This document shows, in pieces, positions 42,159-58,589 of a stretch of 64,000 nucleotides of DNA (its first letter is position 1; each line of letters begins with the position of its first letter). Source of the DNA: Nitrospirota bacterium (GTDB lineage: Bacteria > Nitrospirota > UBA9217); assembly GCA_963840455.1 (NCBI GenBank), contig CAWIYV010000001.1:1-64000 (forward strand), in the 5' to 3' direction. A model generated the notes under the pieces. It ran no database searches. It worked only from the letters and a program-made list of their open reading frames with translations, and had not been told where the DNA came from. The position numbers and the translations under genes were made by a program.

Positions 42159-42256
42159 AACCAGCTCGACATTCAAGGTTCAATCAATGAGCACCAAAGC
42201 AGACTCAAGGTTCGAACCTTAGTTCGCGGTCATCAATTTTCAAGGCGCTCTCTGCA

Positions 42257-42902
42257 ATGCCCAAGGATTTCACCAACCGACCCTTTGACAAGCTGAAAAA
42301 AGCAGCTCGAACGACGGCCGCCGCCAGCACCCGCACCCCCGCCGCCGCCGGTTCCGGACTCAAGACCCCTTACGGAGGATGAACTTTTTACACACGCCAT
42401 GACCGATGTCCAGGTGATCGAAGCGTTCCGGGTGCTGCCCTGCGCTAGGTTATCCCGGCGGGAAGCCCCGTCACGGGAGACGCGGGACCCTGATGACGAT
42501 GCCCTTGCCATCCTCAGGCAGATCGCCGAGGGTAGCCATCCCATCAATCTGTCGGACACGCAGGAATACATCGAGTGGACCAATCCCGAGGTGCCTGGTG
42601 AGGTCATCGGGAAACTGCATACCGGGCAATTCTCGGTGCAGGGCTATCTCGATCTCCATGGCTATACCGGTGATGAGGTCAACGAGACGCTCGACGCGTT
42701 CCTTGCAGAAGCGTTCCAGCGGGACTGGAAATGCGTCAAGGTCATCCATGGCCGGGGTTTGCGTTCGGTGAAGGGGCCGGTGCTGAAGGACGCGGTCGTC
42801 CGGAGGCTGGTGGGACGGTATCGGAAGCAGGTGATCGCCTTCGTCAGCGCGCGGCAATGCGACGGAGGGCTCGGCGCGCTGTATGTACTGCTGCGCCGGT
42901 GA
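42257..42902 (+). CDS. Smr/MutS2-C domain protein, with an apparent +1 frameshift in the A6 run at 42296-42301
   Basis: Motifs LDLHG, IHGRGLRS, DGGLGALYVLL. The plausible N-terminus MPKDFTNRPFDKLKK lies in another frame and joins if A6 is read as A5. Confidence 0.85.
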
Positions 42903-42959
42903 TTCAATATTCCAGATTCATGGTTCTTGAATGCCTGTATATTGAATGATCTTTACTCT

Positions 42960-43604
42960 TTACTCTTTCCAACCCTTCGCTCCGATGAGCGGAACGAACA
43001 CACAGGGGATGCTCGTTTTCGTGACCACGCCCGATGGCGATTTGATGACCTTCATCAGGACCTGGGAGTACCGTTCGCCAACGGGGATCACCAGCCTCCC
43101 GCCGTCCTTCAGCTGCTCCACCAGGGTGTCGGGAACGTCGGGTGCCGCAGCGGTGACGATTATAGCGTCGAAGGGCGACATCTCCTTCCACCCATAGGTC
43201 CCGTCGTAGACCTTCATGACCACGTTCTTGTAGCCCAGCCGGTCGAGCGTTGCCCGAGCCTTGTCGGCAAGGGTCTTCACCCGTTCGATGGTGAATACCT
43301 TCTGGCACAGCTCGGCGAGCACCGCGGCCTGGTAGCCCGACCCGGTCCCGATCTCGAGGACCCGCTCATCGCCCTTGAGCTCCAGGAGCTCGGACATAAG
43401 CGCAACGATGTAGGGCTGGGAGATGGTCTGGCCCTCTCCGATGGGCATGGCGTGGTCGCCGTAGGCCTGCGCCCGCAAGGCCTCGGGCATGAACTCGTGG
43501 CGAGGCACTTTGCCCATGACGGCCAGGACCCGGGGGTCCGTGACGCCGCGAAAGGCGATCTGCTCGTCCACCATGCGGCTGCGTTCTTTTTCGAAATTGA
43601 TCAT
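42960..43604 (-). CDS. pcm: Protein-L-isoaspartate O-methyltransferase
   Basis: Motifs QTISQPYIVA, VLEIGTGSGYQAAVL, PFDAIIVTAA, FVPL. Confidence 0.96.
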   Translation of the reverse strand: MINFEKERSRMVDEQIAFRGVTDPRVLAVMGKVPRHEFMPEALRAQAYGDHAMPIGEGQTISQPYIVALMSELLELKGDERVLEIGTGSGYQAAVLAELCQKVFTIERVKTLADKARATLDRLGYKNVVMKVYDGTYGWKEMSPFDAIIVTAAAPDVPDTLVEQLKDGGRLVIPVGERYSQVLMKVIKSPSGVVTKTSIPCVFVPLIGAKGWKE

Positions 43605-43632
43605 GTTTGGCTCAGCTTGCAGGCTTGCGGCG

Positions 43633-44409
43633 TTATTTTAGCTCTTCATGTTTCACGGGCTGCTCATAAGCGAGCATTTCGGCAGGCTTGAGAGCATCAA
43701 ATGCGGCATAGTCGGTAAGGTCCAGGTGCAGGGGCGTGATCGAGACCATACCCCGGTCGATGGCGTCGAAGTCCGTTCCCGGCTGGCGCTCCCACTCCGG
43801 CTCCCCTCCCCCGATCCAGTAGTACTTCTTTCCGCGCGGATCGACCCGCTCCACGGTCATCTGGTGGTAGATGCGCTTGCCAAGCCGGGTGAGCGTCGTC
43901 CCCTTTATCTCCGGGAGCGGCAGGTTCGGCACGTTCACGTTCAGGAGCGTCCCTTTGGGAAGGCCCTGCGCAAGGACCAGCCGGGCGACCTGCAGGCCGA
44001 CCTCGGCGGCTTCGGCGAACAGGAAGTTCTCGCGGGCGGAGAGCGAAATGGAGAAGGAGGGAACGCCCAGGATCAGCGCCTCGATGGCGCCGGCGACCGT
44101 GCCCGAATAGGTCACGTTGTCGCCCATGTTGGGCCCCTTGTTGATGCCCGAGACCACGAGCTTCGGCACTTCTTTCAGGAGACCTTTGACCGCGATATTT
44201 ACGCAATCCGTCGGCGTGCCGTTCACGCTGTAGACGCCATCCTTCAGCTGCTCGATGAGCAGCGGCCGGTGGAGCGTCATGGAATGACCGGCCGCGCTCC
44301 GCTCCCGGTCCGGCGCGACGATGACCACTTCGTCAAGGGCTTTCAGGCGCTTTGCGAGAAGTTGGATGCCGGGTGAATAGACACCGTCATCGTTCGTTAC
44401 GAGGATCAC
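43633..44409 (-). CDS. surE: 5'/3'-nucleotidase SurE
   Basis: Motifs ILVTNDDG, GTPTDCV, SGINKGPNMG, YSGTVAGA. Confidence 0.96.
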   Translation of the reverse strand: MILVTNDDGVYSPGIQLLAKRLKALDEVVIVAPDRERSAAGHSMTLHRPLLIEQLKDGVYSVNGTPTDCVNIAVKGLLKEVPKLVVSGINKGPNMGDNVTYSGTVAGAIEALILGVPSFSISLSARENFLFAEAAEVGLQVARLVLAQGLPKGTLLNVNVPNLPLPEIKGTTLTRLGKRIYHQMTVERVDPRGKKYYWIGGGEPEWERQPGTDFDAIDRGMVSITPLHLDLTDYAAFDALKPAEMLAYEQPVKHEELK

Positions 44410-44641: not shown

Positions 44642-44900
44642 TTATACACCTTCATTCGTGCCGTTCTGACCTGCTCCTGCAAGAAGGCGCCCATAGAGCG
44701 GCTCAATATGATCACACATACGTTTTGCGCTAAACTCACTTGACCGAGCCAATGCTGCTGCGCCCATCGTATCCTGTCCATTGGGATCAAGCAGCAAAGG
44801 AATGATCATGGCTGCCTGTGTACTCGGATCGGCTGGAGGGACCAGCCGGCCCGACTTGCCATCTTCTATCAGTTCCGGTAGACCGGTAACGACCGATGCG
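44642..44900 (-). pseudogene. C-terminal fragment of a GT4 glycosyltransferase
   Basis: Pattern GLPELIEDGKSGRLVPPADP...MGAAA...FS...M....EPLY; the N-terminus is missing. Confidence 0.65.
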
Positions 44901-45136
44901 GCGACTTCAGGCCAACCTCGACCGCAGCTGCGAACCAGAAATACTAGCGGTCGGGAAGAGAGATGGCGAATGAAGGTATGTTGAGGATCAGCGTTTCGAT
45001 TGATACAGCGACCGTCCCTGAGTAGGCCACGTCGTCGCCTAGGCTCGGGCACTTGTGGAGTGCCGTTCACGCTACAAACGCGCTACGCGCTCCATCTCCC
45101 TCTCCCGATATTTCCGCAGGGTGATCTACAGAAAAT

Positions 45137-45168
45137 AAAAGCCGCTGACAATTTTATCGGCGGCTTTT
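45137..45168. terminator. Bidirectional terminator after the DUF11 cluster
   Basis: AAAAGCCGCTGA-N8-TCGGCGGCTTTT. Confidence 0.75.
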
Positions 45169-45206
45169 GTCATTCTTTCCCGGTTTCCGAGGTCGCCTGC
45201 CCCACC

Positions 45207-48200
45207 CTACTGTCCGGTAATCCACTTCACCGCGTCGCGGACCGAAGCTTGGTCGAACTTCATCCGGAGCTTGACGAAAGGACCTTCAGCCGTGAAGTCC
45301 GCCTTCGAGAAGTCCCGGTCCATGAAGCCGATGAAATTGTATCCCACGCTGATCCAGAGGTTCATGGCCGCCTGGAGGCCCACCGACGCCTGCGTACTGT
45401 AGTCCGTCTGGCCGATGGCAAGCGATCGGAGCATGCTGACGCGCATCCCCACGTCCACCTTTTTCGTGATGTCGTACCGCCCCTCGATGCCGGTCAGATC
45501 CGTGTAGCCGCGGTAGTCGTTCTTTTCGATGGTCTCGCTCACGAACTTGGAGCCGTACTGGAAGGACCACTGCGTCCTGCCCTCGAGCTTGAAGTTCAGC
45601 ACGAAGTTATTCACCACCCGCCAGTTCTCGTAGGGCAGGTCCACGCCCTTCTGCTCCGCCTGAAGGAAGTCGAGCCGGTCGAGGAAGATGACGCGCGTCT
45701 CTAGAGGCCGGTAGGCCGCGCCGAGGCGGAGATCTCCTGAGAAGCTGACCGGTCCCGCAACGTTGACGGTCCGGAAGGTCTGGAGGCCCGCAGCAAGCGC
45801 GAGGCCGTTGCCCACCTCTCCGTTTGCGCCCCCGAAGACACCGAGTTTGTCTTCCGTCGTCGACCAGCGCTCCTCGACGCGGCCGGTCCACGACCACCGG
45901 TCAGCCCTGTACGCCGCGCCGAGGAAAACAGCTGTGAAGTCCTCGGTGCCACCCGACGCTGGCGGGACGTTCGTGTTCATCGAGTACTCGCCCGTCTTGT
46001 GGATCGTGGCTGACCGGTCGAAACCGGTATCAAGGCTCCACCGGCTGGTCAGCTGCCAGGCCTGCTTCAAACCGGTGGTGGCGAAGAGCCGGTTGCCGTT
46101 TTCCGTGGTCTGCTGCTCCATGGTCTGATTCAGCTGGGCGCCAGTCCAGGGGGCTGACCGGATGCCAACGCGGGACGTGGCCGTGTTCGCCTGAATGCCC
46201 CGCGTTACTTCCTGGTCCGCAAAGAGCGTTGTGTTCTTGGTGAGCAGGTAGTCCATTCCCACGGTCGTGCGCGTCGGGAAGTCCACGCTCGAGTCGGAAC
46301 TGTTCAGGGTCTGATCGTGCTGGATGCGGCCGGCCAACCGCTGGGAGAACTGGTATTTCGCGCCAAGGAAGATCTGCTCGGAACGGTGAACCTCACCCGT
46401 GCCGAGCGTGTCCTCGGCGTGCCGCAGCCCGGCGAAGACCTCATAGCCCGGCATGGCGTAGCGAGCCCGCGCCTCGGCCATGTCGCGCACCGCGCCAGTG
46501 GAGAGGTTCTCCTGACGGAAGACCTCGCCACCCAGGGACCAGGGTTGGTTGATGCGGTACAGCAGATCGCCGCCGACCTTGCGCGTTCCGGTTTCGCTGC
46601 CGTTCTGCTGGCCCACCCCGAAGCCGGGCTCCTGCTCGCGGACATACACCTTCCCTTCCGCCTGCTCGGAGCGGTGCTGGATCTCGGCAAGGTACGCCGA
46701 GCCTTCAATTGTAGTCCCGGCATTATCGCTCGAGGACCGAGCGGCCTCGGCGCGCAGCGTCGTGGACGGTGTCAGCCGGACCGAAGCGTCTACGCCGGTC
46801 AGGTTATTCTCGAGGCCCCGCGCCCCTTCATGGGCATGGGTCACGCCGACCTGGCTGCGCCGATCCAGCGAGTTCACGGCTACGCGGCCGCCATAGGTGT
46901 ACGACGTGTTCGAGGGATCGAAAGTCTCGTACTCGGTCACGATGTACACGGGGTTGAAGTTCTCGTCGCGGCTCTGCACGGGGGACTTGAAGAACAGCGT
47001 GCCGGACTCGTAATCGATGGTGTAATCCACATTCCGGCTAAGCCGCTGGGCCGACACGATCACCTCGCTCTTGAACCGGTCGCGGGCCTCGATCGTGACG
47101 GACTCCGAGTTCAGCACGATGTTCCTGCGTGACAGGTGGTAGAGGCCCGATGTACCGTCGCCGCGGAGCTCGTCCTTCACGTGCGCCTGATCGGTGTCCG
47201 CCGCGAAGACGGTGTACTCGAAGCGGTCGCCCTTCATCTCGGACTTCACGCCCGTTAGGTTCCTACTGTACCGGGATAGCTCGGTCATCGTCAAGCCCGT
47301 GGCGTAGTCGCCGAAGAGAGCATAGAACTGGCCTCGCTCCAGCTTGACATACACATGCTTGGCGCTCGGTGCGTCGTTCAGCTGCTCCGTGGCGTCGCCG
47401 TACAGCATATAGTACTTGTTCGGGTCAATGTACTGATACATGTTTCGCCGGCCGCCTGGTTCCTTCGCGCTGTCGTAGGCCGCGGTCAGGAGCCACTCGC
47501 CCTTGATCACGCCCTTGGTGTAGAAGGCCACGCGACCCTCGTGGTAGAGGTCGTCCGAGCCGCCCGTGGCGCCGAAGGACTCCATGTTCCCGGTCACGAT
47601 ATTGTATCCCACCGTGCCTTCGGCAAGGCCGACGAGCACCCAGTCGCGGGCCTCGGGCCGGAGCCACGCGCGAACCTCCTGGGACCCCGACGCGAGCGGA
47701 ATGCGCACCACCGCCTCGCCGGACTGCGTCGTCGGCGCCAGCTCGATCAGGGCGATACCATCGGCGCCCACCTGGTAGCGTATCCGGTCCGTGGCCGGGC
47801 CGGAGATCGGCGACTGCTGGAGCTGGGCCGCGCGCTGCTGCGCGAAATGCGGCGGATCCACCGTAAACTCACCGGCGATCCCCTCGCGCGCCGGATGACC
47901 GTCCTTGTCCAGCAGGCGCACCGCGATGGCCGGGGGGGTGATCCCATCAGCGAGCAGCCGCGACCGTTCGGGGACGAAGACCGCTGCCACGGGGTTTCCG
48001 GAATAATGGACAATCCGGAACATCTGATGGAGCACGGTGCCCGCCTCGTCCCTGACCACGACCTCGAAGCGGTTGTCGCCCTCAACGATGTTGATACCGC
48101 TCCATGTGCTCACCGCCAGACCGCCGTCGCCCCGCTTTAGAGTGCCTTCGAAATATATCGGGTCCACGGGCTTTCCGTCTTGCAGAAGCGTGAGGCGGTG

Positions 48201-51200
48201 CACGGGGTCGTGCTTGAACGCGGCCTTAGTGCTCGGTATAGATGGATGGTAGTTCTCCGGCGGCCAGAGCCAGCTGAAACCGGCGACCGCAGACCCGAGC
48301 CACGCCGCATTGTAGTCGGGCATGGCGTTTCCTGCGGAGCGGTCCGTAGCCTCCGCGTTCGCTTCCTGTGGCCACTCCTCGCCCGGCCGCAGACCCATCG
48401 TTGCCACGGCCTTCATGCCGCTGGGTGGACCGCTCACCAGCGCCGGCACGGCGACGATGATCTTGGGAGGCCTGATCCGGAGCTCCACCCGGCGGTTCCG
48501 TGCGCGGCCCTGCTCGGTACTGTTGCTCGCCACGGGCTCGTCCGGCCCCTTGCCGTCATAGGTGATCTGGTCGGACGTGAGGCCCAGACCGTCGGCAATG
48601 TACGCTCCGACCGTGGCAGCCCGCTCGTAGGACAGCGCGTAGTTGTCGGGGTAGCACGCCTGCAGCCGGGGGCTGATTCGCCGGGCGTCGGTGTGGCCGG
48701 TGACCGTGATATGCTCCACCGACTTCTGTTTCATCCGGGAGATGACGCGGTCCAGTTCCTCTTTGTCCCGCCGGGTAAGCTCGGCGCTCCCACTTTCGAA
48801 CTCGGGATGCAACACGATGTCCGGCGCCGGACGGAGCTCGTCTCGTGTGCCGCGGACGAGCTCCGTGCTCACCGCCGGCGTGCGGTTGTTCTTGCCCTCC
48901 GGCGAGTCAGCGGTAAGGATGGCGGAGGTTCTGAACTGAGCGCCTTCAGGGCCGCTGACGGGCACAACCGTATCGAAGGAAAGCGTTCCACCCCAGTTCG
49001 CCGGGATCTCGGCGAACCGGAAGGTGACCGTGCTGCCAATCTCTTGCGGCTCATCGATGGGGAACGCCTTCCAAAACGTGCCGGTCGGATTGCTGACTGG
49101 CCTGCACTCGGGTCGCGGCCCGGCTGCAAAGGCGGCCGTACCTGGCCGGTAAACACCCCCTTCGGGCAGCATGATGGAGAGCTTCAGGTTCCGCGCCGGC
49201 ACCACGCCGACGTGCACCGGGACCGTATATTGAATGAGGTCTTTCCCCTCCTCCAGAGGCGGCTCGCCAGGTGCCGGCCGCTTCGGAGACGTGAGGATCT
49301 CGATGCCGACCTCGCCGACCTGTTTCGGCTTGAGGCCCACGTGGAAGTCCGCGCGCCAGAGCGCCCCGCCTTGGAGGTCCACAAACTGAGAGAACGGTGT
49401 GCCGGCAAACCGCGTGTTCTCCTCGCAGGCCATGACCTCGTACTTCTCCGGCAACGTCGACAGGTCGACCTGCACCACATGCGTGCCCGGCTGCACGGCT
49501 GCGAAGTGGTACATGCCGTTCTGGTCGGTCACCACGAATGTCCCATCCTCGCGGTAAATCCGCACTCCCGCGAGACCGCCCTCCTCGCGCCGCTCCTTGT
49601 CACCACAGCCGTCCACGCTGACCCGTCCGACGATGGTCGCCGTGCTCCGGAACAGGTCCTCAATGACCACGACTGTGGCCTGCGCCGTGTTCGAAATCGC
49701 GCCGGGCGTGCCGGAGGCAACGGCTGTGTTGGTTGCTATGCCCGGCCGGGCCCCAGCGCCCACCTCGGCCACATAGACGATGTCGGCCTTGGTTCCAGCT
49801 GACAGGTCGCCAGCAGAGAAAGTCAGACTGCGGCCGTCAGAGGAAACAACGGGATCGGCGGTTGTCGCGCTGTTCAAGCGTGCCGAGCCTTTCCGGTAGC
49901 GGAAGCCAATCGGCAGCCGGTCCGTGACCATGACCGCCAGGATATTGCCGGTAGAATTATTTTCCACGGTGAGGCGATAGGGTACGAAGTCCCCCACCGC
50001 TGCGGTCTGTTTGCCTGCCGTCTTGACAAGCCACAGGCTTGCGTTCACGGGGTCCACGGGGATGTCTATGTGGATGGAAGGGCCGGGATTCACAACGAAG
50101 TCCTCGCCACGCGACCCGGGTATTACGATGGCGAAGGGCCCGCCTGGCAGCGTCTGGATGATGTTGGTCGCCACCTGGGACGGCGCGCCGTAGCCAGTGG
50201 GAGGCGTCACAACAAGCCGATAGGTGCCGGGCGCGACGATGAAAGGAAACCGGTAGCCGCCGGGCGTGAAGGTGTAGATTCTGCCGCTGCCGTCCGTAGC
50301 CGTGGCGCCCGAGACAACTGCCGATGGGAAAATGCTGACGCCGTCCTCGCCGTACACCGTGGCCGGAAGGCCGGTCGAAGCATCGATCATCGTAACCGTG
50401 GCCCCGTCCACCGGGAGACCGGACACACTGCTGAAGACTAGTCCGTAGGGATCGACCAGCGCCCCTGCTACCGGTGTGTCCACCGCATCGGCACTGTCGG
50501 TGTACGACGCATTGATACGCGATCCGGTCGCCACCTGCAGGACGCCATTCCCACTCGCGGCCGGCGTAGGCCCGGTCTGGATGTACCCGGCGAAAACGCC
50601 CGTGTTCGGGCCGGATTCAAGGAGCCGCAGCACCTCCGTGTCAAGGGTCACGGGGTTCTGGATGGTAACAAGCACGGTCTCACGGACTGCGGGATCCAGG
50701 TTCTGGTCCAGATCAGTCAGCCGGATGAATACTGGTTCTCCCATGTTGAACTGCGTTGCAGGCACGAGCGGGACCGGAGCTGAGAGATCGATAGGCGCCG
50801 AGCCGACGCCTGGAGTTATATGCACCGGCGGGGCAAGCGCGATGAACGTGCCCGTCGGAGTGCCGTTATTGCTGTAGGACGTCGTCCCGACGGACACGAG
50901 CTGGGCGCCCGGCGCACCAGGGCCGTACTGCAGGAGTTCCAGGGTCGAAGGGGTGCGGAGCGCGATCGTGGTCACGGTGACGCTGTTTGAGCTGACCAGT
51001 AGAGGGACTGAGGATGCTCCGGTGGTATAGACCGCTGCTGCGGTGTTTATGATGTTCGTTCCGGGCAGCGTCGCGGAAATACTCGCTACGGGTACGAGCA
51101 TGATGGATAAGAATGCAAGAAGAACGATGATTAAGGAGAATAATGACGACGTTCTGACCGATGAGTCTCTGTTCTGACGGCTGGCGGCAGCCATGTCGGG

Positions 51201-51281
51201 GCGCACAAGTGGCATCATGCCGGTATTGCTGCCGGATGCCCGTTTCACGCGTATCGTTTGTATGCGCTTATCCCTTTCCAA
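45207..51281 (-). CDS. Large outer-membrane protein: signal/anchor, Ig-like domains, complete DUF11, SdrD-B-like domain, OmpA domain and C-terminal beta-barrel
   Basis: Hydrophobic signal region; DUF11 at ~49670-50040; TDQNGMYHF..VQPGTHVVQVD; OmpA motifs TGHTD, LSYERA, GRARNRRVE; about 800 aa of alternating Gly/aromatic beta strands. The true start may be downstream. Confidence 0.85.
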   Translation of the reverse strand: MERDKRIQTIRVKRASGSNTGMMPLVRPDMAAASRQNRDSSVRTSSLFSLIIVLLAFLSIMLVPVASISATLPGTNIINTAAAVYTTGASSVPLLVSSNSVTVTTIALRTPSTLELLQYGPGAPGAQLVSVGTTSYSNNGTPTGTFIALAPPVHITPGVGSAPIDLSAPVPLVPATQFNMGEPVFIRLTDLDQNLDPAVRETVLVTIQNPVTLDTEVLRLLESGPNTGVFAGYIQTGPTPAASGNGVLQVATGSRINASYTDSADAVDTPVAGALVDPYGLVFSSVSGLPVDGATVTMIDASTGLPATVYGEDGVSIFPSAVVSGATATDGSGRIYTFTPGGYRFPFIVAPGTYRLVVTPPTGYGAPSQVATNIIQTLPGGPFAIVIPGSRGEDFVVNPGPSIHIDIPVDPVNASLWLVKTAGKQTAAVGDFVPYRLTVENNSTGNILAVMVTDRLPIGFRYRKGSARLNSATTADPVVSSDGRSLTFSAGDLSAGTKADIVYVAEVGAGARPGIATNTAVASGTPGAISNTAQATVVVIEDLFRSTATIVGRVSVDGCGDKERREEGGLAGVRIYREDGTFVVTDQNGMYHFAAVQPGTHVVQVDLSTLPEKYEVMACEENTRFAGTPFSQFVDLQGGALWRADFHVGLKPKQVGEVGIEILTSPKRPAPGEPPLEEGKDLIQYTVPVHVGVVPARNLKLSIMLPEGGVYRPGTAAFAAGPRPECRPVSNPTGTFWKAFPIDEPQEIGSTVTFRFAEIPANWGGTLSFDTVVPVSGPEGAQFRTSAILTADSPEGKNNRTPAVSTELVRGTRDELRPAPDIVLHPEFESGSAELTRRDKEELDRVISRMKQKSVEHITVTGHTDARRISPRLQACYPDNYALSYERAATVGAYIADGLGLTSDQITYDGKGPDEPVASNSTEQGRARNRRVELRIRPPKIIVAVPALVSGPPSGMKAVATMGLRPGEEWPQEANAEATDRSAGNAMPDYNAAWLGSAVAGFSWLWPPENYHPSIPSTKAAFKHDPVHRLTLLQDGKPVDPIYFEGTLKRGDGGLAVSTWSGINIVEGDNRFEVVVRDEAGTVLHQMFRIVHYSGNPVAAVFVPERSRLLADGITPPAIAVRLLDKDGHPAREGIAGEFTVDPPHFAQQRAAQLQQSPISGPATDRIRYQVGADGIALIELAPTTQSGEAVVRIPLASGSQEVRAWLRPEARDWVLVGLAEGTVGYNIVTGNMESFGATGGSDDLYHEGRVAFYTKGVIKGEWLLTAAYDSAKEPGGRRNMYQYIDPNKYYMLYGDATEQLNDAPSAKHVYVKLERGQFYALFGDYATGLTMTELSRYSRNLTGVKSEMKGDRFEYTVFAADTDQAHVKDELRGDGTSGLYHLSRRNIVLNSESVTIEARDRFKSEVIVSAQRLSRNVDYTIDYESGTLFFKSPVQSRDENFNPVYIVTEYETFDPSNTSYTYGGRVAVNSLDRRSQVGVTHAHEGARGLENNLTGVDASVRLTPSTTLRAEAARSSSDNAGTTIEGSAYLAEIQHRSEQAEGKVYVREQEPGFGVGQQNGSETGTRKVGGDLLYRINQPWSLGGEVFRQENLSTGAVRDMAEARARYAMPGYEVFAGLRHAEDTLGTGEVHRSEQIFLGAKYQFSQRLAGRIQHDQTLNSSDSSVDFPTRTTVGMDYLLTKNTTLFADQEVTRGIQANTATSRVGIRSAPWTGAQLNQTMEQQTTENGNRLFATTGLKQAWQLTSRWSLDTGFDRSATIHKTGEYSMNTNVPPASGGTEDFTAVFLGAAYRADRWSWTGRVEERWSTTEDKLGVFGGANGEVGNGLALAAGLQTFRTVNVAGPVSFSGDLRLGAAYRPLETRVIFLDRLDFLQAEQKGVDLPYENWRVVNNFVLNFKLEGRTQWSFQYGSKFVSETIEKNDYRGYTDLTGIEGRYDITKKVDVGMRVSMLRSLAIGQTDYSTQASVGLQAAMNLWISVGYNFIGFMDRDFSKADFTAEGPFVKLRMKFDQASVRDAVKWITGQ

Positions 51282-51306
51282 TGGTTACCGTTCTACTCCT
51301 GAAAAT

Positions 51307-51336
51307 CTCCCCTCCCACACTCAGGTGGGAGGGGAG
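51307..51336 (-). terminator. Strong intergenic hairpin between the putative major subunit gene and the outer-membrane protein gene
   Basis: CTCCCCTCCCAC-actcag-GTGGGAGGGGAG forms a perfect 12-bp stem, followed by ATTTT on the minus strand. Confidence 0.7.
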
Positions 51337-51357
51337 TGGTCGCTGCAGCTTTTTAAT

Positions 51358-52461
51358 TTAGTTCACCGTAACCTGGTACTTGATCCGCGCAACACCGCCA
51401 AGGGAGTTAACAGTTAAGTTCGTGACATTGACCGTGCCTGCGGTAAAATCGGCATTGTCGACATCGCCATTCGTATTCGTGCGGCATCCGAACGTGCCGG
51501 TGCCCGGATCAACGGCGATGCCCTGGCCCGCTATGCAGCTAGGCCCTCCGTCATCGAACTGCGTCCGGAATGTCACCGGCAGCGCACCCAGTGCGTCCGC
51601 GATAGACACGTTCGTAGCATTGGACGTGCCGGGATTCGTGATCGTCACTATGTAGGTGATGACCGCGCCAGGGATCGACCGCGGCGAGGTGGTCCCGTTT
51701 ACGGGATCGGAATAGACCACCGGGGTCTTGGTCACAGTGATCCCCGATATCCGGAACGCACTCCGGTCGGATGCGCGAGCATCGCGTCCTACGTCGCCGG
51801 TGACTGTCCCGTTGCCGGCATCACCGAAGACCGTATCAACACCGTTGTAGTTGGCGACACCCTCGGCCAGGTTCGTCGCTACCCCTGCGCCGCTGCCAAA
51901 GGCGCGGGCTACCGCGGTAAGCGAAAATGCCTGGAGCGCGCCATTCGCCTCACCCGCCGGGATGTTGGCGACGATAAATACTGTCACCGAGACGTCCGAG
52001 TTGATGGTACTGAACAGCGCCGTGTCAACCCCCGGGTCATAGATACCGTTACCAGTATCCACATAGGCGGCGACCGTCGGGACGGTGACAAAGGTGTTCG
52101 CCCCGCCGTTATAGGGGTTGGTGGCCGAAACGGCCGTCACCAGCCCGAAATCGAGCTGTGTGTTCGTGATGTTCGTCACCAGGAACGTCAGGTAGGCATT
52201 CGTTGCGCCTCCCGCCACGTCGACGAAGTTCGCGTTCTGGCGGGTGACCGTCATGTTCACCCGCATACCGACCGTGAATGTGGCCGTGGAGACAAGCGCG
52301 CTTCCCGGCACTCCTCCGATGGAATAACCGACCGACACCGAGTTGCTGATGCCGGTGCCTGCAATGGTGCCCGCTGCCCAGATGGACGCAGGTACCGCAA
52401 TGGCGATCGCCGTAATGATCGCGACCGCCGTCAGGATCCTTTTAATGCTTGTTGCTTGCAT
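51358..52461 (-). CDS. Secreted DUF11-like protein, putative major filament subunit
   Basis: TAAGGAGG RBS, Sec signal (IWA|A), N-terminal GTIAGTGISNSVSVGY, C-terminal VTKT...PGAVITY...SIAD...YQVTVN*. Confidence 0.85.
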   Translation of the reverse strand: MQATSIKRILTAVAIITAIAIAVPASIWAAGTIAGTGISNSVSVGYSIGGVPGSALVSTATFTVGMRVNMTVTRQNANFVDVAGGATNAYLTFLVTNITNTQLDFGLVTAVSATNPYNGGANTFVTVPTVAAYVDTGNGIYDPGVDTALFSTINSDVSVTVFIVANIPAGEANGALQAFSLTAVARAFGSGAGVATNLAEGVANYNGVDTVFGDAGNGTVTGDVGRDARASDRSAFRISGITVTKTPVVYSDPVNGTTSPRSIPGAVITYIVTITNPGTSNATNVSIADALGALPVTFRTQFDDGGPSCIAGQGIAVDPGTGTFGCRTNTNGDVDNADFTAGTVNVTNLTVNSLGGVARIKYQVTVN

Positions 52462-52661
52462 GACTTCCTCCTTAGGTTAGTGTTTTCGAATATGCAAAAT
52501 AGATTGTTCTGTGGCCGTTCTTGCCCCAGGTCTTTTTATCCCCCCTTCCATGATTCTCCGAACTTGTTCCAGAGAAATCTTCGTTCTTTTCGTTTTCGAG
52601 AATCGTTCCTATATTGTGATATCATGGCATGCTCCTCCCAAGTGCTCCGTCCTTCTCGCGG

Positions 52662-53156
52662 CTACCGGATCTGCGCACGAAACGAGACGCTTCCGCTAGC
52701 GCCAGGTGCCAGGGGGGCCGTCACGGTCCAGCGGATGTGCGTAAAATCCGCGGGCAGGGCCGGACGGACTTTGCCGTCCTTGTTCGTGATCTGCAGTTTT
52801 TCCGGTGCAGCGTATTTCTTGCCACCGTCGACGGAAAAGTCGATCTTCGTTCCCTTGCCCTCTGCGCTCTTTTCCACATAGGCCATGTGCTCGGGCACGG
52901 GGTTCGTGACCACCACCCCAGTGGCCGCCTGCTTTCCTTTGTTGACATAGCGTGTGGTGAAGATCACGACATCGCCTGGAACGACCTTGGCTTTAGAGGC
53001 CTCGATGCGCTTCACCTCGGTCGTTCCCTGGGCTGTCTTTTCCTTGACCTCCACTTCGGCTAGGCTCGTCACGACAATGTCCCCTTGCTGTTGCGCCCAG
53101 GCGGACAGGGGGGCCAGTGCCAATACCAGCATGCATCCAATGATCCTGTTCCTCAT
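52662..53156 (-). CDS. Secreted single-domain DUF11-like protein, putative chaperone/accessory factor
   Basis: Signal peptide AWA|Q; VVPGDVVIFTTRYVNKG...VVVTNPVP...FSVDGG...HIRW...VSFRAQIR*. Confidence 0.85.
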   Translation of the reverse strand: MRNRIIGCMLVLALAPLSAWAQQQGDIVVTSLAEVEVKEKTAQGTTEVKRIEASKAKVVPGDVVIFTTRYVNKGKQAATGVVVTNPVPEHMAYVEKSAEGKGTKIDFSVDGGKKYAAPEKLQITNKDGKVRPALPADFTHIRWTVTAPLAPGASGSVSFRAQIR

Positions 53157-53179
53157 CTGCGTTCCCTCCTTAGTATTGA

Positions 53180-54184
53180 TTAATCAATTTTTACATCGAA
53201 CGAAATGACCTGCGCAGGCGACGCGCTGGTCAGGTTTCCCACATTGACCGTAATGGTATTCGGAGAAGTGATCCCGAAATTGCCCGCGTCGGCGTCTGTG
53301 GCGTCGGTCAGCGGCACTCCGTTCAGTACTATCGTTCCGGGCTTGTAGGTGGTGCTCGCCGGGATCGCGTCGGAGATGACGATGCCAATTGCAGTTCCGG
53401 TTCCCGCCATGGTCACACTCAGGGTATAGCGGATGGTCGCTCCCGGTTGAGGCCGGTTCCCGCCGTAGGGATCGAGAATGACGGCCGTCTTGGTCACATT
53501 CACCGTGGCACCACTGGAGATGGCATAGCTTCCGGCGGCGGTCCGGGTACCCTGCGACGCGCCGATCACCGCGTCGGAACCTCCTTCGCCGGCACCGGGC
53601 AGGATGGTCCCGGCAGGACCGGTCCCGCTGGCTGAGACCGCAGTCAGGTTGACCGTACCGACGTCGCCATTGGTCATGGTGGTCGCCGGTATACTTGAAA
53701 GTACAAAGATCGTCAGAAAACCGTCAGCTGTGACCGTGCCGGTGCCCGAGCTGTACAGCACGTCCGTGCTTTGGTCAAAGACGCCGTTCCCATTAGCGTC
53801 GAAATAGATCGCCGTGACCACCGGATCGAACTGGTCCCCGCCAATGCCCGCCCCAGTCGCGGACAGAGTATATGCGTCATTGCCGTTCCCAGTGTTGGTG
53901 ATACGGAGCGTAGAGACCGCATTGGCCTGGCCCGGTAGAACGGGTACCGGAGAAGCGTCCTGCAGGGTGAGGGTAAGTTCGAGACGCTCGGCAATCCGGA
54001 GGGATGCGTTGCTGGACTGCGAGTAGTTGTTGCCGGCTATCGTGTAGTTCACGCTTACGGTGTTCATGATCACCGTGCCCGCTGCTGTTCCGACAGCACG
54101 CGCGCTGTCCTGACCCACCAGGCTTGCGGCAAGGAACGCGATGGCAATCAGGGCCTTTTTATATGTAGTTCCGCTTCTCTTCAT
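53180..54184 (-). CDS. Secreted DUF11 protein, putative minor subunit/adaptor
   Basis: Signal ARA|V, N-terminal GTAAGTVIMNTVSVNY, C-terminal VTKT...PGATIRY...ISDAIP...FDVKID*. Confidence 0.85.
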   Translation of the reverse strand: MKRSGTTYKKALIAIAFLAASLVGQDSARAVGTAAGTVIMNTVSVNYTIAGNNYSQSSNASLRIAERLELTLTLQDASPVPVLPGQANAVSTLRITNTGNGNDAYTLSATGAGIGGDQFDPVVTAIYFDANGNGVFDQSTDVLYSSGTGTVTADGFLTIFVLSSIPATTMTNGDVGTVNLTAVSASGTGPAGTILPGAGEGGSDAVIGASQGTRTAAGSYAISSGATVNVTKTAVILDPYGGNRPQPGATIRYTLSVTMAGTGTAIGIVISDAIPASTTYKPGTIVLNGVPLTDATDADAGNFGITSPNTITVNVGNLTSASPAQVISFDVKID

Positions 54185-54232
54185 GGGTCGATCTTTCGTG
54201 CGAGGCGGGCAGAGCACGCCTCACTTAGCCTC

Positions 54233-57200
54233 CTAATTGATCCTGACCCGGAACTGGATCGTGAACTGCGGGTTCGGCGGGCCGCTCGTTCCGTTCAACG
54301 CTCCGGCAGGGTTGATGCGTACGCCCTTCACATTCGAGTCATACCCGCCAACCGACACCGGCGTATAGTTGTACGGAGGACCGCCGCCAATCTGAGACGA
54401 GTAGGTCACAGCGGTCGCATAGTTGTACGTCACTCCGCAAGGAGGGACGGCGCTGCAAGTAAAGGTCACGGGATCGCCCGATCCGGTATCGACGTACATG
54501 CTTGTATTGGCCGGAATCGGGTCCGTGATGACGATCGAATTGCTATCAGCGGAGCCCGGGCCGCTATTGATCACCGTTACGGTATACAGCATCACCGCCC
54601 CGGGAATGGATTTTGGGTTGGTCGTATTATTGTATGGGTCGGAGAAGGTCGAGACCGCCTTAACGACCAATATGCTCGGTACAGCGCGTTCACCGATCGC
54701 GAATACGCCAAACCCACTCATACCGGTCGCCGTCGTATTATTGGGATTTTTCGCACCCACGGTCGGGTAGGTCCACACGCCGCCGCTCTTGCGTCCGACA
54801 ATAAAGTTGGCCGTGTTCGCACCGCTATCAATATCGCCATTCACAAATGTGAATGTCGCGTCATACGTTGCGAAGGCTAATGAAGCCCCTTGCGTCAGGG
54901 TCCATGTGCGGTTCACGCTCTTTCCCGCATCAATGCCTGAGGTGTTCGCCGTGGTGTCCCCATGGTCGCCCGTATCGGTGCGAGCGATCAGTACGCCGTT
55001 CACCAGCGTCGAGGTGACGTTGGCCATGGCGACCGTCACCGGGGTGTAATTCGTTGCATCGCCGATAGGGAATGTACAGAGCGTAGTGCCTGCATTGGTC
55101 GGATAATGCAGGCTCAGATTGCCCACCACAAATCCGCCGGTTCGTACGATTCCGGTAGCACAGCTGGACCCCACTTCTAGAACATTCGCGCCGGTCGTGA
55201 AAATCCCGTTGGTGAGAGTTAGCACACCGCTGACGGTGGGACTGGCGCTAAGCGTCGCTCCAAACGCATCGTTCATTATTAAGTTAGCGTAGGTGCCGGT
55301 ACCTGAAAGAACGTGAACGGCCGTGCCGCCGCTCAACGTAATGCTTCCGGTGGTGGCGGTATGCGTTCCGGTGTTGTTCACGTTGCCATTCACGGTCTGG
55401 ATGCTCGCACCACTTCCAAAGATCACACTGGTAATCGCAAGATCTCCCCTCACAACGAAGCTGCCCGCCGCGGTCTTGACGCCGCTACCGCTCACGGTGA
55501 GATTTCCATAGCCCGGAGCCGCTTCAGAAGCAATATTCTGGTTGGCGCCGCTGTATTCGACCGTGCTGGTTGCGCCGAGCGTGTGCGTTGTGTAGTTGGT
55601 TGGAAAGCTGTTGGTCCCACCGATCTTGAGCGTTGTTCCGTTGGCCACCGTGATCATGCCACCGGCAGCCGTTCGGTTCGCGGTGAAGGTAGCGAGATCC
55701 AGCGTTCCCGTGGAAACGGAAAGGTTCCCGACTTGGGTCGCATTGCCCGTCAGGGCGGCTGCATTGCCAGCACCCACATTTATCGCAAGGTTGTTAAAGT
55801 TGGAGGCACCTATCTGCGGTGCTGCGCCTGTGAAAATCACTGTTCCGGTAGGCGTGAAGGTGCCGGCCGATCTCGTCCAGGTGCCCGCGCCTGTGCCGGT
55901 CACCGTAATCGTGTTACCGTTGTCAATCAGCGTGCCGGCCGTCTGGTTGAAGGTGCCGATGGAAATTGGTGTAGCGGCGGTTAAGGTCGTTGCTCCGGTG
56001 GAAGTGTAATTGAGAGCACCGGCAACGGTGAAGCCGGCGTTTCCCGTCATCGTCGCAGCGCCTGAAATGGTAAGGTCGCCGTTGATCGTGGTCACACCTG
56101 TCATGGTCTTAGCGCCGCTGTTGCTCAGGGTAAGGTCATAATAGCTCGTCGGCTCTACTGTCTGCGCGCCGGCACGGTTATAGTTCACCGTGTTGCCGAT
56201 GGCAGACGCGTCGAGAGTGTTAATGCCCGGCGGTCCGATGAACCCGATGCTCAGCGTGCCGGTATTGGCCAGCGTGCCGGTACCAGCCAAGGCGGTCGTG
56301 ACGTTTAGATTTCCGTTATTGGTCAAAGTCACCCCGGTAACGGTAACGTTGGGGATGGTGGTAATAGTTGTTCCACCAAAGCTCTGGCTATTGGTGTTAA
56401 AGGCGTAGACCCCAGTGCCCGCAGTGAAGGTTCCGTTGTTGATCAGGCCGCCCTGCATCGTAATGTTCTCATTAGCGCTATTGTTCCAGGTGCCGCCGTT
56501 ATTGATCGTGATGTTTCCCGTGTAGGTTTTTGTCCCTGCTGCATTGTTGTGAGTCAACGTGCCTGACACTGACGTCGTACCCGTCACTACAGTGTTTAAA
56601 CCGCCCACGGTCAAGGTCGTGCCCGCGCCGACGGAGAGATTGCCGAGGATGTTCAGCGTGCCGGCAGCGGGAGTTTTTGTACCGCTCCCCGACAGAACAA
56701 GATTCGGGTACGTCATCCCGGCCGTTGTGATTGCCTGATTTCCGGCTAAAGCGAGTGTTATCGTTGCTGTTGAGTTTCCTAACGCGTTGAAGGTGTTGGT
56801 TCCTGAATTAGCGGCAAATGGAGTGGCATTGTAAAATTGCAGGTTGGGCGAGCCCGACAATTCCACTTTACAGGTCCCATTACATGCCCCCCCCGGTCCG
56901 CCATTGAGATCAATTCTGTCCAATAACCAGGTTCCCGAACCGGAGAAGGTAGAAGTGACGTTGTTTCCCGCAAGGTAGATGGCATTTGTGCTGCCAGAAA
57001 CAGTGAAGTTGACGCTGCCATTGTTGACGAGGTTGCCCCCCAAGTATATGTCGGAGTTGGCTCCAGCGGCGATAGCAAGAGTTCCTCCTGAATCGATCTG
57101 CAGGCTCGCCAACGTGTTAGTGTTGGCATTGAACGTTACCGTGCTGCCGTTCGGTACGATGACTGAGTCGCCTGCTGCCGGCACATGCCCGCAACTCCAG

Positions 57201-57613
57201 GTAGCCGCCGTTCCCCAATTGACGGCACCGGTGTTGCTGGTGCAGGTCGCCGCCTGCGCAACAGATCCCCACGCACCCAGCCAGATCAGCATTACTGTCA
57301 CGATGCAAATTTTGAAAAATTTTCTTATTGCCCGTCTTGGCACGCTAGCCTGTCCGCTGTGGTCAACCGAACCATCCATTTTGTTCCATGAAAGTGGCAC
57401 TGTTCGCGACGCGGCAGACTTCTCTCTTCTTCTGCATTCCGGTATGAGTCGGGATAGTTCTTTGTCTTGCACGTTCACTTGGTCTTTATATTCCCTCATC
57501 GCGCCAACAACGTAGCGCATTGTGTACTGCCTCATCGATGACAGCATCCGTTCTCTCTTGTCATCTGAATTGACCATAATAAACACCCTCACAAATACAA
57601 AAAAACATGGCAT
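54233..57613 (-). CDS. Large Thr/Gly/Asn-rich adhesin-like protein with C-terminal DUF11, putative tip adhesin
   Basis: Signal ending AQA|A, beta-helix-like repeats (Y.NL..SGSG.KT), C-terminal VVKA...PGAVMLY...ITDPIP...FRVRIN*. The real start is probably downstream, e.g. 57379. Confidence 0.85.
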   Translation of the reverse strand: MPCFFVFVRVFIMVNSDDKRERMLSSMRQYTMRYVVGAMREYKDQVNVQDKELSRLIPECRRREKSAASRTVPLSWNKMDGSVDHSGQASVPRRAIRKFFKICIVTVMLIWLGAWGSVAQAATCTSNTGAVNWGTAATWSCGHVPAAGDSVIVPNGSTVTFNANTNTLASLQIDSGGTLAIAAGANSDIYLGGNLVNNGSVNFTVSGSTNAIYLAGNNVTSTFSGSGTWLLDRIDLNGGPGGACNGTCKVELSGSPNLQFYNATPFAANSGTNTFNALGNSTATITLALAGNQAITTAGMTYPNLVLSGSGTKTPAAGTLNILGNLSVGAGTTLTVGGLNTVVTGTTSVSGTLTHNNAAGTKTYTGNITINNGGTWNNSANENITMQGGLINNGTFTAGTGVYAFNTNSQSFGGTTITTIPNVTVTGVTLTNNGNLNVTTALAGTGTLANTGTLSIGFIGPPGINTLDASAIGNTVNYNRAGAQTVEPTSYYDLTLSNSGAKTMTGVTTINGDLTISGAATMTGNAGFTVAGALNYTSTGATTLTAATPISIGTFNQTAGTLIDNGNTITVTGTGAGTWTRSAGTFTPTGTVIFTGAAPQIGASNFNNLAINVGAGNAAALTGNATQVGNLSVSTGTLDLATFTANRTAAGGMITVANGTTLKIGGTNSFPTNYTTHTLGATSTVEYSGANQNIASEAAPGYGNLTVSGSGVKTAAGSFVVRGDLAITSVIFGSGASIQTVNGNVNNTGTHTATTGSITLSGGTAVHVLSGTGTYANLIMNDAFGATLSASPTVSGVLTLTNGIFTTGANVLEVGSSCATGIVRTGGFVVGNLSLHYPTNAGTTLCTFPIGDATNYTPVTVAMANVTSTLVNGVLIARTDTGDHGDTTANTSGIDAGKSVNRTWTLTQGASLAFATYDATFTFVNGDIDSGANTANFIVGRKSGGVWTYPTVGAKNPNNTTATGMSGFGVFAIGERAVPSILVVKAVSTFSDPYNNTTNPKSIPGAVMLYTVTVINSGPGSADSNSIVITDPIPANTSMYVDTGSGDPVTFTCSAVPPCGVTYNYATAVTYSSQIGGGPPYNYTPVSVGGYDSNVKGVRINPAGALNGTSGPPNPQFTIQFRVRIN

Positions 57614-57844
57614 TTAGTAACATAAGCTTCAAACATAATAAAATAATTAACTTCTTTTTTTTGAAGTCCAACAAATATTTTTAATACCTATGATACTGTA
57701 AATTATAATAAATCAAATATTATTTGTCAACACTATTTTTAATAGAATACTATATTATTTAAATATAATATTTCATAATAACAATAAGTTATAGGGTCGT
57801 ATGGTTTAATATGCGAAATGTGCTCTGGAAAGCGTTAGCCGGCA

Positions 57845-58117
57845 TCAAGCAACCCCAATGATTTCGGTCATCGTGAGGTTCACCTTGTTGTCAACTACGA
57901 ACGTTGCAGAGGGATCGGTGCTGATTGCCGGCTGCAACGCGTCGCCGATCGCCCAACCGGGAGAGGTGGCATTGGTCATGGGCTGGTATTGATCGCGGAT
58001 GTGACGACGCTGATGAAACACCATCCCAGCACCAGCAAGGACCAATGCGCGAAGACCCGGCAGAGAGGCAACAATACTCGCGCCGACATAGCGGCGAGCA
58101 CTAATGCATGATGCCAT
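57845..58117 (-). pseudogene. Degenerate fragment of a subunit-like gene
   Basis: SATFVVDNKVNLTMT resembles STATFTVGMRVNMTVT of the 367-aa subunit; it stops shortly afterwards. Confidence 0.45.
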
Positions 58118-58589
58118 TCTTCCACCTTAATCGGACAACGGAATGCACCGGGGAACGATGGCCGGGAAGCTAATGGCATTGTCCCAAATAAAAAACTAAA
58201 TGGTGCGCCTGCTGGAATGGCCCATTGTCCTTCGCTCGTTGGAAACCCGGTCAAAATTGACAATTACCTATTAAATCAAAATTTTAGGAAGGAGATATTA
58301 ATTTTAACAAGTATAGTTAATATGATATACATAGTCAATACAATAAATATCTTATTTTTACTTTATTTGGATATAAATTCACACACTATCTATATGTTCG
58401 TGGGTGGTTAATCGGAGTGGTTATGGCAGTGATATGATAAAAATAGTGGAGTTTCTGCGTCGTACAGACCGCAGCAATAAAAAGAGGCCTCGTTTTCCAG
58501 GCCCCGCAATTGTGCTTAAATTGTGCCTATTTCACTCGGAAGTGACTTGATTGTATCTGGCTGGAGCTAACTTGATTACTGGAATAAAA

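Follow-up and report, generated by a model that had tools for sequence, protein, structure and literature searches.

In the engineered split domains SpyTag/SpyCatcher, SnoopTag/SnoopCatcher, and isopeptag, a strand or hairpin with one reactive residue docks on the remainder of the domain and ligates spontaneously; these tag/catcher pairs are laboratory constructs made from Gram-positive CnaB- or pilin-type domains. We report here on an operon of five genes in a 64,000-nucleotide stretch of DNA from a Nitrospirota bacterium (positions 1 to 64,000 of contig CAWIYV010000001.1, assembly GCA_963840455.1; the whole stretch is called the window throughout), whose products may be joined through split domains of the DUF11 family, recently renamed CLIPPER (PMC12617251). 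In an intact domain of this family, solved from the 2129-aa single-chain adhesin of Acinetobacter silvestris (PDB 9IFR), an intramolecular bond links Lys715 to Asn806 with the participation of Asp748 (PMC12617251). The available part of that paper treats intramolecular bonds only and does not discuss split or intermolecular domains.

Bonds between chains have been reported or proposed for filaments of other kinds. The bond proposed for the archaeal thread (Saci_0406 of Sulfolobus acidocaldarius) runs from the N-terminal amine of Asp24 to Asn57 of subunit n+2 (PMC9715654). BsaA of Clostridium perfringens assembles by "donor-strand exchange and lock", with an inter-chain N35-K74 bond and E56 as the catalytic residue, and its mutants lose the oligomers (bioRxiv 10.1101/2024.11.04.621531). 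The principle of complementing a fold and then locking it thus has precedents in the Sulfolobus thread and BsaA. For the haloarchaeal "tafi", the published model is a donor-strand filament with no isopeptide bonds (PMC11821415). Our search of the full-text literature, to which subscription journals and supplements (e.g., the tables of PMC12617251) did not belong, returned no description of split DUF11/CLIPPER domains or of this operon as a pilus.

On balance, we favor the view that the operon encodes a modular surface fiber whose subunits complement one another through a hairpin, and that spontaneous Lys-Asn isopeptide bonds probably lock the joints. The acceptor at each joint would be a CLIPPER/DUF11 immunoglobulin (Ig)-like fold without its last two strands that still has the catalytic Asp and the Lys of the first strand. 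The mature N-terminus of the next subunit would supply the missing hairpin and bring its Asn beside the Asp and Lys, so that a bond normally made within one CLIPPER domain would here link two chains. The 1126-aa protein, which has an acceptor only and a variable, adhesin-like N-terminus, would be the distal tip; the 345- and 367-aa proteins, which carry both donor and acceptor, would make up the stalk; and the 2024-aa protein, with a donor only, would end the chain and tie the fiber to the envelope via its OmpA-like domain and large C-terminal region. We name the proteins below for these proposed places.

The five open reading frames (ORFs) are arranged head to tail on the minus strand, which also carries all features of the operon given below unless noted, in the order 1126, 345, 164, 367, and 2024 aa, with gaps of 15, 23, 200, and 76 nucleotides between them. 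They encode the tip protein (P0001, 54233-57613; assigned by translation, Pfam, and our acceptor profile), the 345-aa subunit (P0002, 53180-54217; profiles and tree), the 164-aa protein (P0005, 52662-53156; Pfam and acceptor profile), the 367-aa subunit (P0003, 51358-52461; profiles, alignment, and tree), and the base protein (P0004, 45207-51281; Pfam, NCBIfam, and alignment). Read by eye, all five have an N-terminal hydrophobic segment with an AxA-like end. An earlier note on this DNA, made from the sequence with no database searches, had listed four of these ORFs; all four were recovered at the same coordinates on the minus strand with every string it quoted, and the fifth gene, that of the 164-aa protein, had been overlooked.

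The base contains one complete DUF11/CLIPPER domain (residues 418-534, Pfam E = 2.2e-11, profile positions 4-111 of 114; 49662-50048) with its own triad of Lys420, Asp454, and Asn518, which is invariant in 44 base homologues. In the smaller proteins Pfam matched only the front of the profile: residues 254-300 of the 345-aa protein (positions 11-56 of 114) and 262-343 of the 367-aa protein (13-84 of 114), both below the Pfam cut-off, and residues 52-106 of the 164-aa protein (7-57 of 114, E = 1.9e-8). All three exceeded the 24-bit cut-off of NCBIfam TIGR01451 (35.1, 27.6, and 38.3 bits for the 345-, 367-, and 164-aa proteins, respectively). The 1126-aa tip had no Pfam DUF11 match, and its C-terminus was recognized only by a custom hidden Markov model (HMM). 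We built this acceptor HMM, together with a hairpin HMM, from an alignment of 49 homologues of the 367-aa protein. The acceptor HMM matched the C-termini of the tip (E = 1e-17), the 345-aa protein (2.1e-24), and the 367-aa protein (1.1e-40) and most of the 164-aa protein (1e-8). These matches place the acceptor domains at residues ~972-1126 of the tip (54236-54700; also marked by its invariant Lys and Asp and by the modelled interface described below), 231-345 of the 345-aa subunit (53183-53527), and 236-367 of the 367-aa subunit (51361-51756). When the acceptor profile was compared with the complete domain of the base by hhalign, it aligned to columns 18-97 of 130 (probability 95.2%, E = 2.7e-8). 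Since the alignment ends at column 97, the roughly 33 C-terminal residues missing from the acceptors are those of the Asn hairpin.

The hairpin HMM identified candidates for the missing piece at the other end of three proteins: residues 28-68 of the 367-aa protein (E = 2.6e-19), 41-79 of the 345-aa protein (4.4e-13), and 70-103 of the base; nothing was matched in the tip. We delimit the donor hairpins as residues 42-78 of the 345-aa subunit (53984-54094; supported also by modelled contacts), 30-66 of the 367-aa subunit (52264-52374), and 70-105 of the base (50967-51074), the last two supported also by conservation of the Asn. By eye, each hairpin sits directly after the AxA end of the signal peptide; in the two-ended 345- and 367-aa proteins, the hairpin continues straight into the middle domain without a linker. 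None of the acceptors forms a complete CLIPPER domain in a single chain, as each ends before the hairpin. The earlier note had read this anatomy from the letters alone, and our searches bear it out on three counts: one complete DUF11 in the base, C-terminal copies in the 1126-, 345-, and 367-aa proteins that stop before the Asn hairpin, and a hairpin right after the signal peptide in the 345-, 367-, and 2024-aa proteins. Searches of known structures and metagenomic families added little to this picture: a sequence search of solved structures gave no match for the 367-aa protein, and an ESM Atlas search with a homologue, P0431, gave nothing beyond the unnamed family to which P0431 itself belongs.

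We then evaluated how widely the arrangement is conserved. In a library clustered at 50% identity, 1536 representatives belong to the family of the 367-aa protein (E ≤ 0.001), and almost all have lengths of 330-400 aa. The cluster occurred in 8 of 24 other genomes of the taxonomic family to which the window belongs, each with two subunit genes ~1.9 kb apart, and the gene order in these relatives was tip, 345-like, 164-like, 367-like, base. In one of them (G016) no tip was found at the usual place; a 1017-aa tip homologue on record may correspond to the divergent ORF that is cut at the edge of the stretch analyzed. Among species-representative genomes, at least 579 relatives were found in 600 matched stretches, and our counts for distant loci refer to the best 80 of these. 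The 80 loci came from Sphingomonas, Novosphingobium, Sphingobium, Caulobacter, Steroidobacteraceae, Moraxellaceae, Nitrospirota, Burkholderiales, Chromatiales, and a Spirochaetales bin, with Sphingomonadales, Moraxellales, and Steroidobacterales among the orders, and several were cut by contig ends. A base was present in 72, a 164-like gene in 72, and at least one two-ended subunit in 78. The order of small protein, subunit, and base was kept in 63, and an acceptor-only protein of at least 450 aa lay within 10 kb in 28. A survey of synteny had been suggested in the earlier note as a check, and the 8 of 24 related genomes and the 63 of 80 distant loci count in favor of its reading.

The distribution of donor and acceptor ends among homologues also speaks for a chain. 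A hairpin was called where the HMM matched at E < 0.01 within the first 130 aa. None of 100 tip homologues had an N-terminal hairpin and all 100 had a C-terminal acceptor; among 120 base homologues, 66 had a hairpin by HMM and none had a terminal acceptor; and the 239 stalk homologues had both ends nearly throughout (hairpin in 234, C-terminal acceptor in 237). A looser hairpin motif was found in 101 of the 120 bases (88 of the 98 that are at least 1900 aa long) compared with 4 of the 100 tips, and the bases without it were mostly truncated at the N-terminus. Tips without hairpins and bases without acceptors contradict a scheme in which each hairpin completes its own chain. In sequence terms, one donor-only protein and, where in reach, one acceptor-only protein per operon is the pattern expected of a chain, in line with the earlier description of the 1126-aa protein as acceptor only and the 2024-aa protein as donor only.

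We modelled one of the proposed joints with ESMFold2 in a competition design, in which a tip fragment with the acceptor and no hairpin (residues 830-1126) was combined with the mature 345-aa protein (residues 42-345), whose own acceptor was present. One alignment was supplied per chain (36 rows, A2; 92 rows, A3). The interface score ipSAE was 0.78, 0.77, and 0.76 in the three runs (median 0.77), while the best of three controls reached 0.00. In the benchmark, 58 of 80 solved complexes attained the mark for this score, as did 2 of 110 mismatched pairs; these counts hold only roughly here because custom alignments were used. The runs agreed in at least 97% of contacts, and the pLDDT of the partner was at least 85. 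On the 345-aa side the interface comprised residues 42-44, 48, 50-62, 65, and 67-78, i.e., the hairpin including Asn52, with a few middle-domain residues, and on the tip side residues 978-1037 and 1125-1126 (149-208 and 296-297 of the modelled piece), which include the strands of Lys985 and Asp1031. The best-determined pairs (residues 199/57, 200/56, 201/55, and 202/54-55 of the tip piece and 345-aa protein, respectively) describe an antiparallel pairing of the tip Asp strand with the first hairpin strand, and we infer that this modelled register would place Asn52 and Asp1031 on one face. The modelled hairpin thus docked on the tip acceptor, on the strands bearing Lys and Asp, although its own acceptor was available. 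The earlier note had suggested a predicted 345- and 1126-aa complex as a check, and the model supports its proposal of hairpin complementation between chains, as a plausible fit rather than as binding.

The residues that would form the bond are strongly conserved. In the 367-aa family, Asn40 (codon 52342-52344), Lys245 (51727-51729), and Asp289 (51595-51597) are invariant in 49 homologues with a mean column identity of 32%. The corresponding positions are Asn52 (54062-54064), Lys243 (53489-53491), and Asp283 (53369-53371) in the 345-aa protein, Lys985 (54659-54661) and Asp1031 (54521-54523) in the tip, and Asn79 (51045-51047) in the base hairpin. The tip Lys and Asp (K156 and D202 of a 297-aa piece) are invariant in 36 sequences and Asn79 of the base in 44 homologues. 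In the distant loci, two-ended subunits had the Asn in 134 of 134, the Asp in 134 of 134, and the Lys in 124 of 134 cases, the other 10 being gaps; large tips had the Lys in 26 of 29 and the Asp in 27 of 29; and base hairpins had the Asn in 61 of 66, with gaps in the other five. The conservation of the Lys/Asp/Asn triad, on which the earlier note had made its reading depend, therefore holds in the 49 homologues as well as in the 80 distant loci. Lys420, Asp454, and Thr517/Asn518 of the base are in register with Lys715, Asp748, and Asn806 of 9IFR, in a weak phmmer match (E = 1.1). The operon thus has the residues of the CLIPPER triad, with the Asn placed in an N-terminal hairpin instead of at the domain end.

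A second "SN" motif was observed in the second hairpin strand. Across all loci it occurs in 65 of 72 bases and 58 of 61 upstream-type subunits and in only 38 of 76 downstream-type subunits (the two types are described below), and it corresponds to Ser530-Asn531 of the internal DUF11 of the base, which is invariant in 44 sequences.

The likely signal peptide of the tip ends near residue 121 (by eye) and is followed by a G8 domain (residues 138-256, Pfam E = 3.5e-8) and a long Gly/Thr/Asn-rich repetitive region that leads to the C-terminal acceptor. Tip homologues have very diverse N-terminal domains, e.g., G8, beta-helix, CARDB, and Calx-beta. The base consists, in order, of a signal peptide, the donor hairpin, an Ig-like stalk with the complete DUF11, an OmpA-like peptidoglycan-binding domain (residues 828-936, 48474-48800; Pfam match at 828-930, E = 5.7e-16), and ~1085 aa of an unnamed and highly conserved family. 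It also has a stretch resembling SdrD_B/CarboxypepD_reg (Pfam). Its database record starts later than our ORF (1964 vs. 2024 aa).

The C-terminal region of the base (residues 1200-2024, 45210-47684) belongs to no Pfam family. Nothing exceeded the Pfam cut-off in the last ~1085 residues, the closest match being YfaZ (E = 0.0013, below cut-off). The region has at least 1475 relatives, none of which has a Pfam domain there, and those with names are annotated as "OmpA family protein" or "TIGR01451 repeat protein". With the base as a single sequence, searches of solved structures found OmpA-like domains and nothing else; with the base profile, the best 60 of 99 rows against PDB sequences were OmpA-like domains and the designed "Pizza" protein (profile positions 310-356), a match that we take as spurious. 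We infer that this region forms an outer-membrane barrel, which may also be the exit pore, because it adjoins an OmpA-like domain, is large and strongly conserved, and a chain that exposes an adhesin has to pass the outer membrane at some point. Because of a resemblance in a motif, we also considered whether it might be a remote usher and rejected this: there was no PF00577 match, and hhalign of 81 base sequences against nine ushers of Escherichia coli K-12 gave a probability of 0.4% (E = 0.14).

Profile searches of the whole genome, which is 100% complete by marker genes, found no usher (PF00577), no PapD-like chaperone (PF00345, PapD_N), and no sortase, while the controls for each (E. coli for the usher) were found. 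No LPxTG motif occurs in any of the five proteins. There is no lipobox in the four larger proteins, and the single motif in the 164-aa protein (residues 5-8) lies too near the N-terminus and has a Cys that is absent in the orthologues. Both the absence of PapC/PapD homologues and the sortase-free character claimed for the system in the earlier note are upheld by these searches.

The 164-aa protein consists of a signal peptide and an acceptor-like domain that terminates at the strand where the other acceptors also stop, and it has no hairpin. It is among the better conserved products of the cluster, with 51-58% identity among relatives compared with 53-61% for the base, and nearly all stalk subunits are lower. 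At the position of the catalytic Asp it has Asn85, with Asn in 8 of 9 close orthologues; of the 72 164-like proteins in the distant loci, 64 have Asn in the Asp column and one has Asp, and 67 have a gap in the Lys column. The loss of exactly the Asp and Lys suggests that these residues have a function that is dispensable in this paralogue. Judged from these features, the 164-aa protein is possibly a chaperone or cap, which would bind hairpins reversibly in the periplasm and either prevent premature irreversible polymerization or serve as a reversible cap. Many Sphingomonadales loci (L036, L037, L040, L041, L046, L050, L056, L061, and others) have a second small acceptor-only ORF of 154-218 aa after the base gene. 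Unlike the 164-aa family, the 22 small acceptor-only ORFs of less than 450 aa, which include these, keep the Lys in 16 and the Asp in 18 cases, and they could be minimal covalent caps or tips.

How many copies of each subunit a chain would contain, and in which order, bears on the strongest of the alternatives to the fiber, a tether of fixed size made of one copy each of tip, 345-aa subunit, 367-aa subunit, and base, or a complex that stays periplasmic or at the outer membrane. In a FastTree tree of 140 proteins, the two-ended subunits separate into two clades according to whether their gene is upstream or downstream of the 164-aa gene; the 345-aa subunit belongs to the upstream and the 367-aa subunit to the downstream clade. 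Position labels change three times on this tree, compared with a mean of 46 (minimum 38) when they are shuffled, and since related loci share labels, the tree shows an old specialization rather than independent events. Two ancient clades with fixed gene positions would suit fixed places in the chain. Across five orders, the base hairpin shows more similarity to the 345-type hairpin in 39 of 43 loci (to the 367-type in 2, with 2 ties), and the tip acceptor is closer to the 367-type acceptor in 23 of 28 comparisons (345-type in 4, tied in 1), which suggests cognate pairs over self-polymerization. Such likeness would fit a scheme in which upstream-type and base hairpins enter tip and downstream-type acceptors and downstream-type hairpins enter upstream-type acceptors. 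The 367-aa protein would then not build a homopolymeric shaft but belong to an alternating copolymer or to a fixed chain of four parts. An OmpA-like domain is also periplasmic by analogy, as an envelope-internal complex would have it.

These likeness trends are weak, however, and their counts come from mutually related loci and are not statistical tests. Both are reversed in the window itself, by small margins (0.30 vs. 0.35 for the base hairpin and 0.27 vs. 0.24 for the tip acceptor). The roles assigned by the earlier note stand in part: the tip and base ends fit a chain, while the placing of the base hairpin next to the 367-aa type is disfavored by the 39 loci, though not by the window. The diverse adhesin-like N-termini of the tips suit an exposed end that faces a host or surface, and multiple copies are compatible with all of the evidence, so we regard a fixed or internal tether as rather unlikely; within the fiber that we favor, the stalk might be a homopolymer, an alternating series, or one copy of each subunit.

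A second alternative accepts the chain and denies the bond: complementation would be non-covalent, as in chaperone-usher pili, and the Lys, Asp, and Asn would be there for packing or for hydrogen bonds. In some homologues the Asn is replaced by Ser, Thr, or Asp, some DUF11 domains are reported to be without the bond in the accessible part of the CLIPPER study (PMC12617251), and BsaA oligomers that lack the Asn are, according to the portion of that preprint available, stable in sodium dodecyl sulfate until heated (bioRxiv 10.1101/2024.11.04.621531). Against this stand a triad that is near-invariant across phyla in proteins of ~30% identity, a bond formed by the same three positions in the solved CLIPPER domain, and the 164-aa paralogue that lost exactly the Asp and Lys. 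We consider purely non-covalent joints improbable, and hairpins with Ser, Thr, or Asp for Asn would, by their sequences, be natural crosslink-free or Lys-Asp variants. One such case is the 345-like subunit of locus L017 (9808-10848, plus strand, genome G001), which, read from the N-terminus, has Ser at this position.

The idea that the 345- and 367-aa proteins are circularly permuted monomers, whose hairpin completes their own C-terminal domain by an intramolecular bond with no polymer, fits the co-occurrence of both ends in the most abundant family (234 and 237 of 239) and the existence of discontinuous isopeptide domains (GBS104-like_Ig, residues 137-211 and 587-717, in the part of PMC12617251 available) and is matched equally well by the triad, but it would leave every tip acceptor unfilled (100 of 100 without an N-terminal hairpin) and every base hairpin orphaned (0 of 120 with a terminal acceptor), there is no linker between hairpin and middle domain, and the modelled hairpin chose the tip over its own acceptor (0.77 vs. 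0.00), all of which makes it very improbable.

Some of our results weigh against the covalent fiber that we favor. One weak point is the hairpin itself, whose homology to the missing piece of the domain is not demonstrable by sequence alone. Three isolated hairpin pieces (46-48 aa) gave no Pfam family at E ≤ 10. The HMM of the complete DUF11 matched none of 233 hairpin segments below E = 0.01, and at E < 1 it matched 69 of 233 compared with 18 of 233 shuffled segments. By hhalign, the hairpin aligned to the last strand of the complete domain and not in the expected register (E = 0.031). The complex score may just reproduce an intact CLIPPER fold known to ESMFold2, and the complex modelling covers one pair, the tip and the 345-aa protein. 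A few homologues depart from Asn in the hairpin, as mentioned, and most base hairpins are, against expectation, closer to the 345-type than to the 367-type, which makes a homopolymeric shaft less certain. At the outer membrane, the sole hint of a barrel in the base is the sub-threshold YfaZ match, and folded subunits would have to cross the membrane.

The operon, with its promoter-like and terminator-like sites, extends from ~57730 to 45135. The promoter-like site 5' of the tip gene (57702-57730, minus strand) has the form TTGACA-17 nucleotides-TATAAT and agrees with 12 of 12 consensus positions; the scan found 15 such sites in total compared with 4.0 expected from shuffles. A terminator-like hairpin with a 14-bp stem and A-rich/T-rich flanks lies just past the base stop codon (45135-45170, strand not assigned), a class of site that is not enriched over shuffles (12 vs. 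11.3). Both are matches to a consensus only. The C-terminal part of a 90-aa ORF 5' of the tip gene (57845-58117, minus strand) corresponds to the last portion of the hairpin HMM together with the beginning of the middle domain (E = 3e-5), and the middle part of this ORF is similar to the mature N-terminus seen in other tip homologues. Very AT-rich stretches lie on both sides of it (~57620-57830 and 58250-58420), and from its sequence the ORF looks like a gene remnant from recombination or from exchange of a tip/subunit cassette.

Neighboring genes were read by eye. Upstream of the operon, the window has PHP-family phosphoesterase-, MerR-, and IHF-like genes and no kinase/regulator pair directly upstream; in the relatives' loci L013, L017, L021, and L023, the cluster adjoins a large sensor-kinase-like ORF and an ORF that ends like an NtrC-type response regulator. 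Just 3' of the operon is a 142-aa ORF (44642-45070, minus strand) with a glycosyltransferase-like C-terminal end, which may be a fragment. Farther on are CrcB-, Smr-, protein-L-isoaspartate methyltransferase-, and SurE-like ORFs (41305-44409) and a run of ORFs resembling an Rnf-type ion-translocating complex, with polyferredoxin-like and membrane subunits (35219-40704, minus strand).

A broader claim is possible, to which we give somewhat less than even credence: that these operons form a new class of diderm pilus, characterized by self-ligation of naturally split CLIPPER domains, a dead-catcher periplasmic chaperone of 164 aa, and one giant protein that is at once terminator, peptidoglycan anchor, and exit pore, present in several hundred species or more from Pseudomonadota, Nitrospirota, and further phyla, with paralogous hairpin/acceptor pairs that are maybe orthogonal cognate sets. 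If the fiber is real, it would be a route of pilus assembly in diderms without usher, PapD-type chaperone, sortase, or type IV machinery, in which subunits are welded autocatalytically, and it would explain a very large set of proteins now called "hypothetical" or "OmpA family". The carriers include the cultured genera Sphingomonas and Novosphingobium, which makes the idea directly testable. It would also offer natural, possibly orthogonal protein-ligation pairs for biotechnology, and "complement, then lock" would have arisen independently in archaea, Gram-positive bacteria, and diderm bacteria.

The machinery, if real, is without a recognizable relative; the nearest analogues among known systems are chaperone-usher pili, the archaeal thread, and clostridial BsaA. 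Chaperone-usher pili (type 1, P, and the archaic Csu/CupE) have an incomplete Ig-like fold that is completed by the N-terminus of the next subunit, as is proposed here from one modelled pair. The proposed fiber would also share with them an acceptor-only tip adhesin, a terminating base subunit, and an operon in a diderm, and growth from the base is the natural reading for both. They differ in that here the genome has no PapD-like chaperone or usher and the C-terminus of the base is not usher-like; the donor is a two-strand hairpin instead of one strand and the fold is CLIPPER/DUF11; the Lys/Asp/Asn triad predicts a covalent lock; and anchor and presumed pore are in one 2024-aa chain with an OmpA-like domain. 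The type V pili of Bacteroidota (Fim/Mfa) would share strand exchange, a division into tip, shaft, and anchor subunits, and the lack of an usher, but are made from lipoprotein precursors processed by a protease, whereas no convincing lipobox is present here. Sortase-assembled Gram-positive pili are set apart by their sortase and LPxTG motifs, neither of which this system has.

Two filaments would be alike in mechanism. The archaeal thread has an N-terminal donor strand and a proposed intermolecular isopeptide bond with no sortase, as far as the available part of its description goes (PMC9715654), but it is archaeal, has no outer membrane to cross, a single type of subunit, and an unrelated fold with no Pfam domain. 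In BsaA, by the accessible part of that report (bioRxiv 10.1101/2024.11.04.621531), an N-terminal segment likewise enters the sheet of the next monomer before an acid-catalyzed Asn-Lys bond forms between chains. BsaA is, however, a SipW-dependent Gram-positive protein of the TasA family with a catalytic Glu and with no tip, base, or outer-membrane part, and none of our five proteins had a TasA-family Pfam match at E ≤ 0.1.

The single-chain CLIPPER adhesins (e.g., A. silvestris B9T28_05395, 9IFR), by the portion of the study available to us (PMC12617251), share the domain family, the triad positions, and a diderm stalk with an OmpA-like anchor. Their stalk is one polypeptide with intramolecular bonds, whereas in the present operon the domain stops short of its last hairpin and its parts are distributed over different proteins. 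Compared with the tag/catcher pairs, in turn, the split in this operon would be a natural one, in a CnaA-like fold, and would serve assembly.

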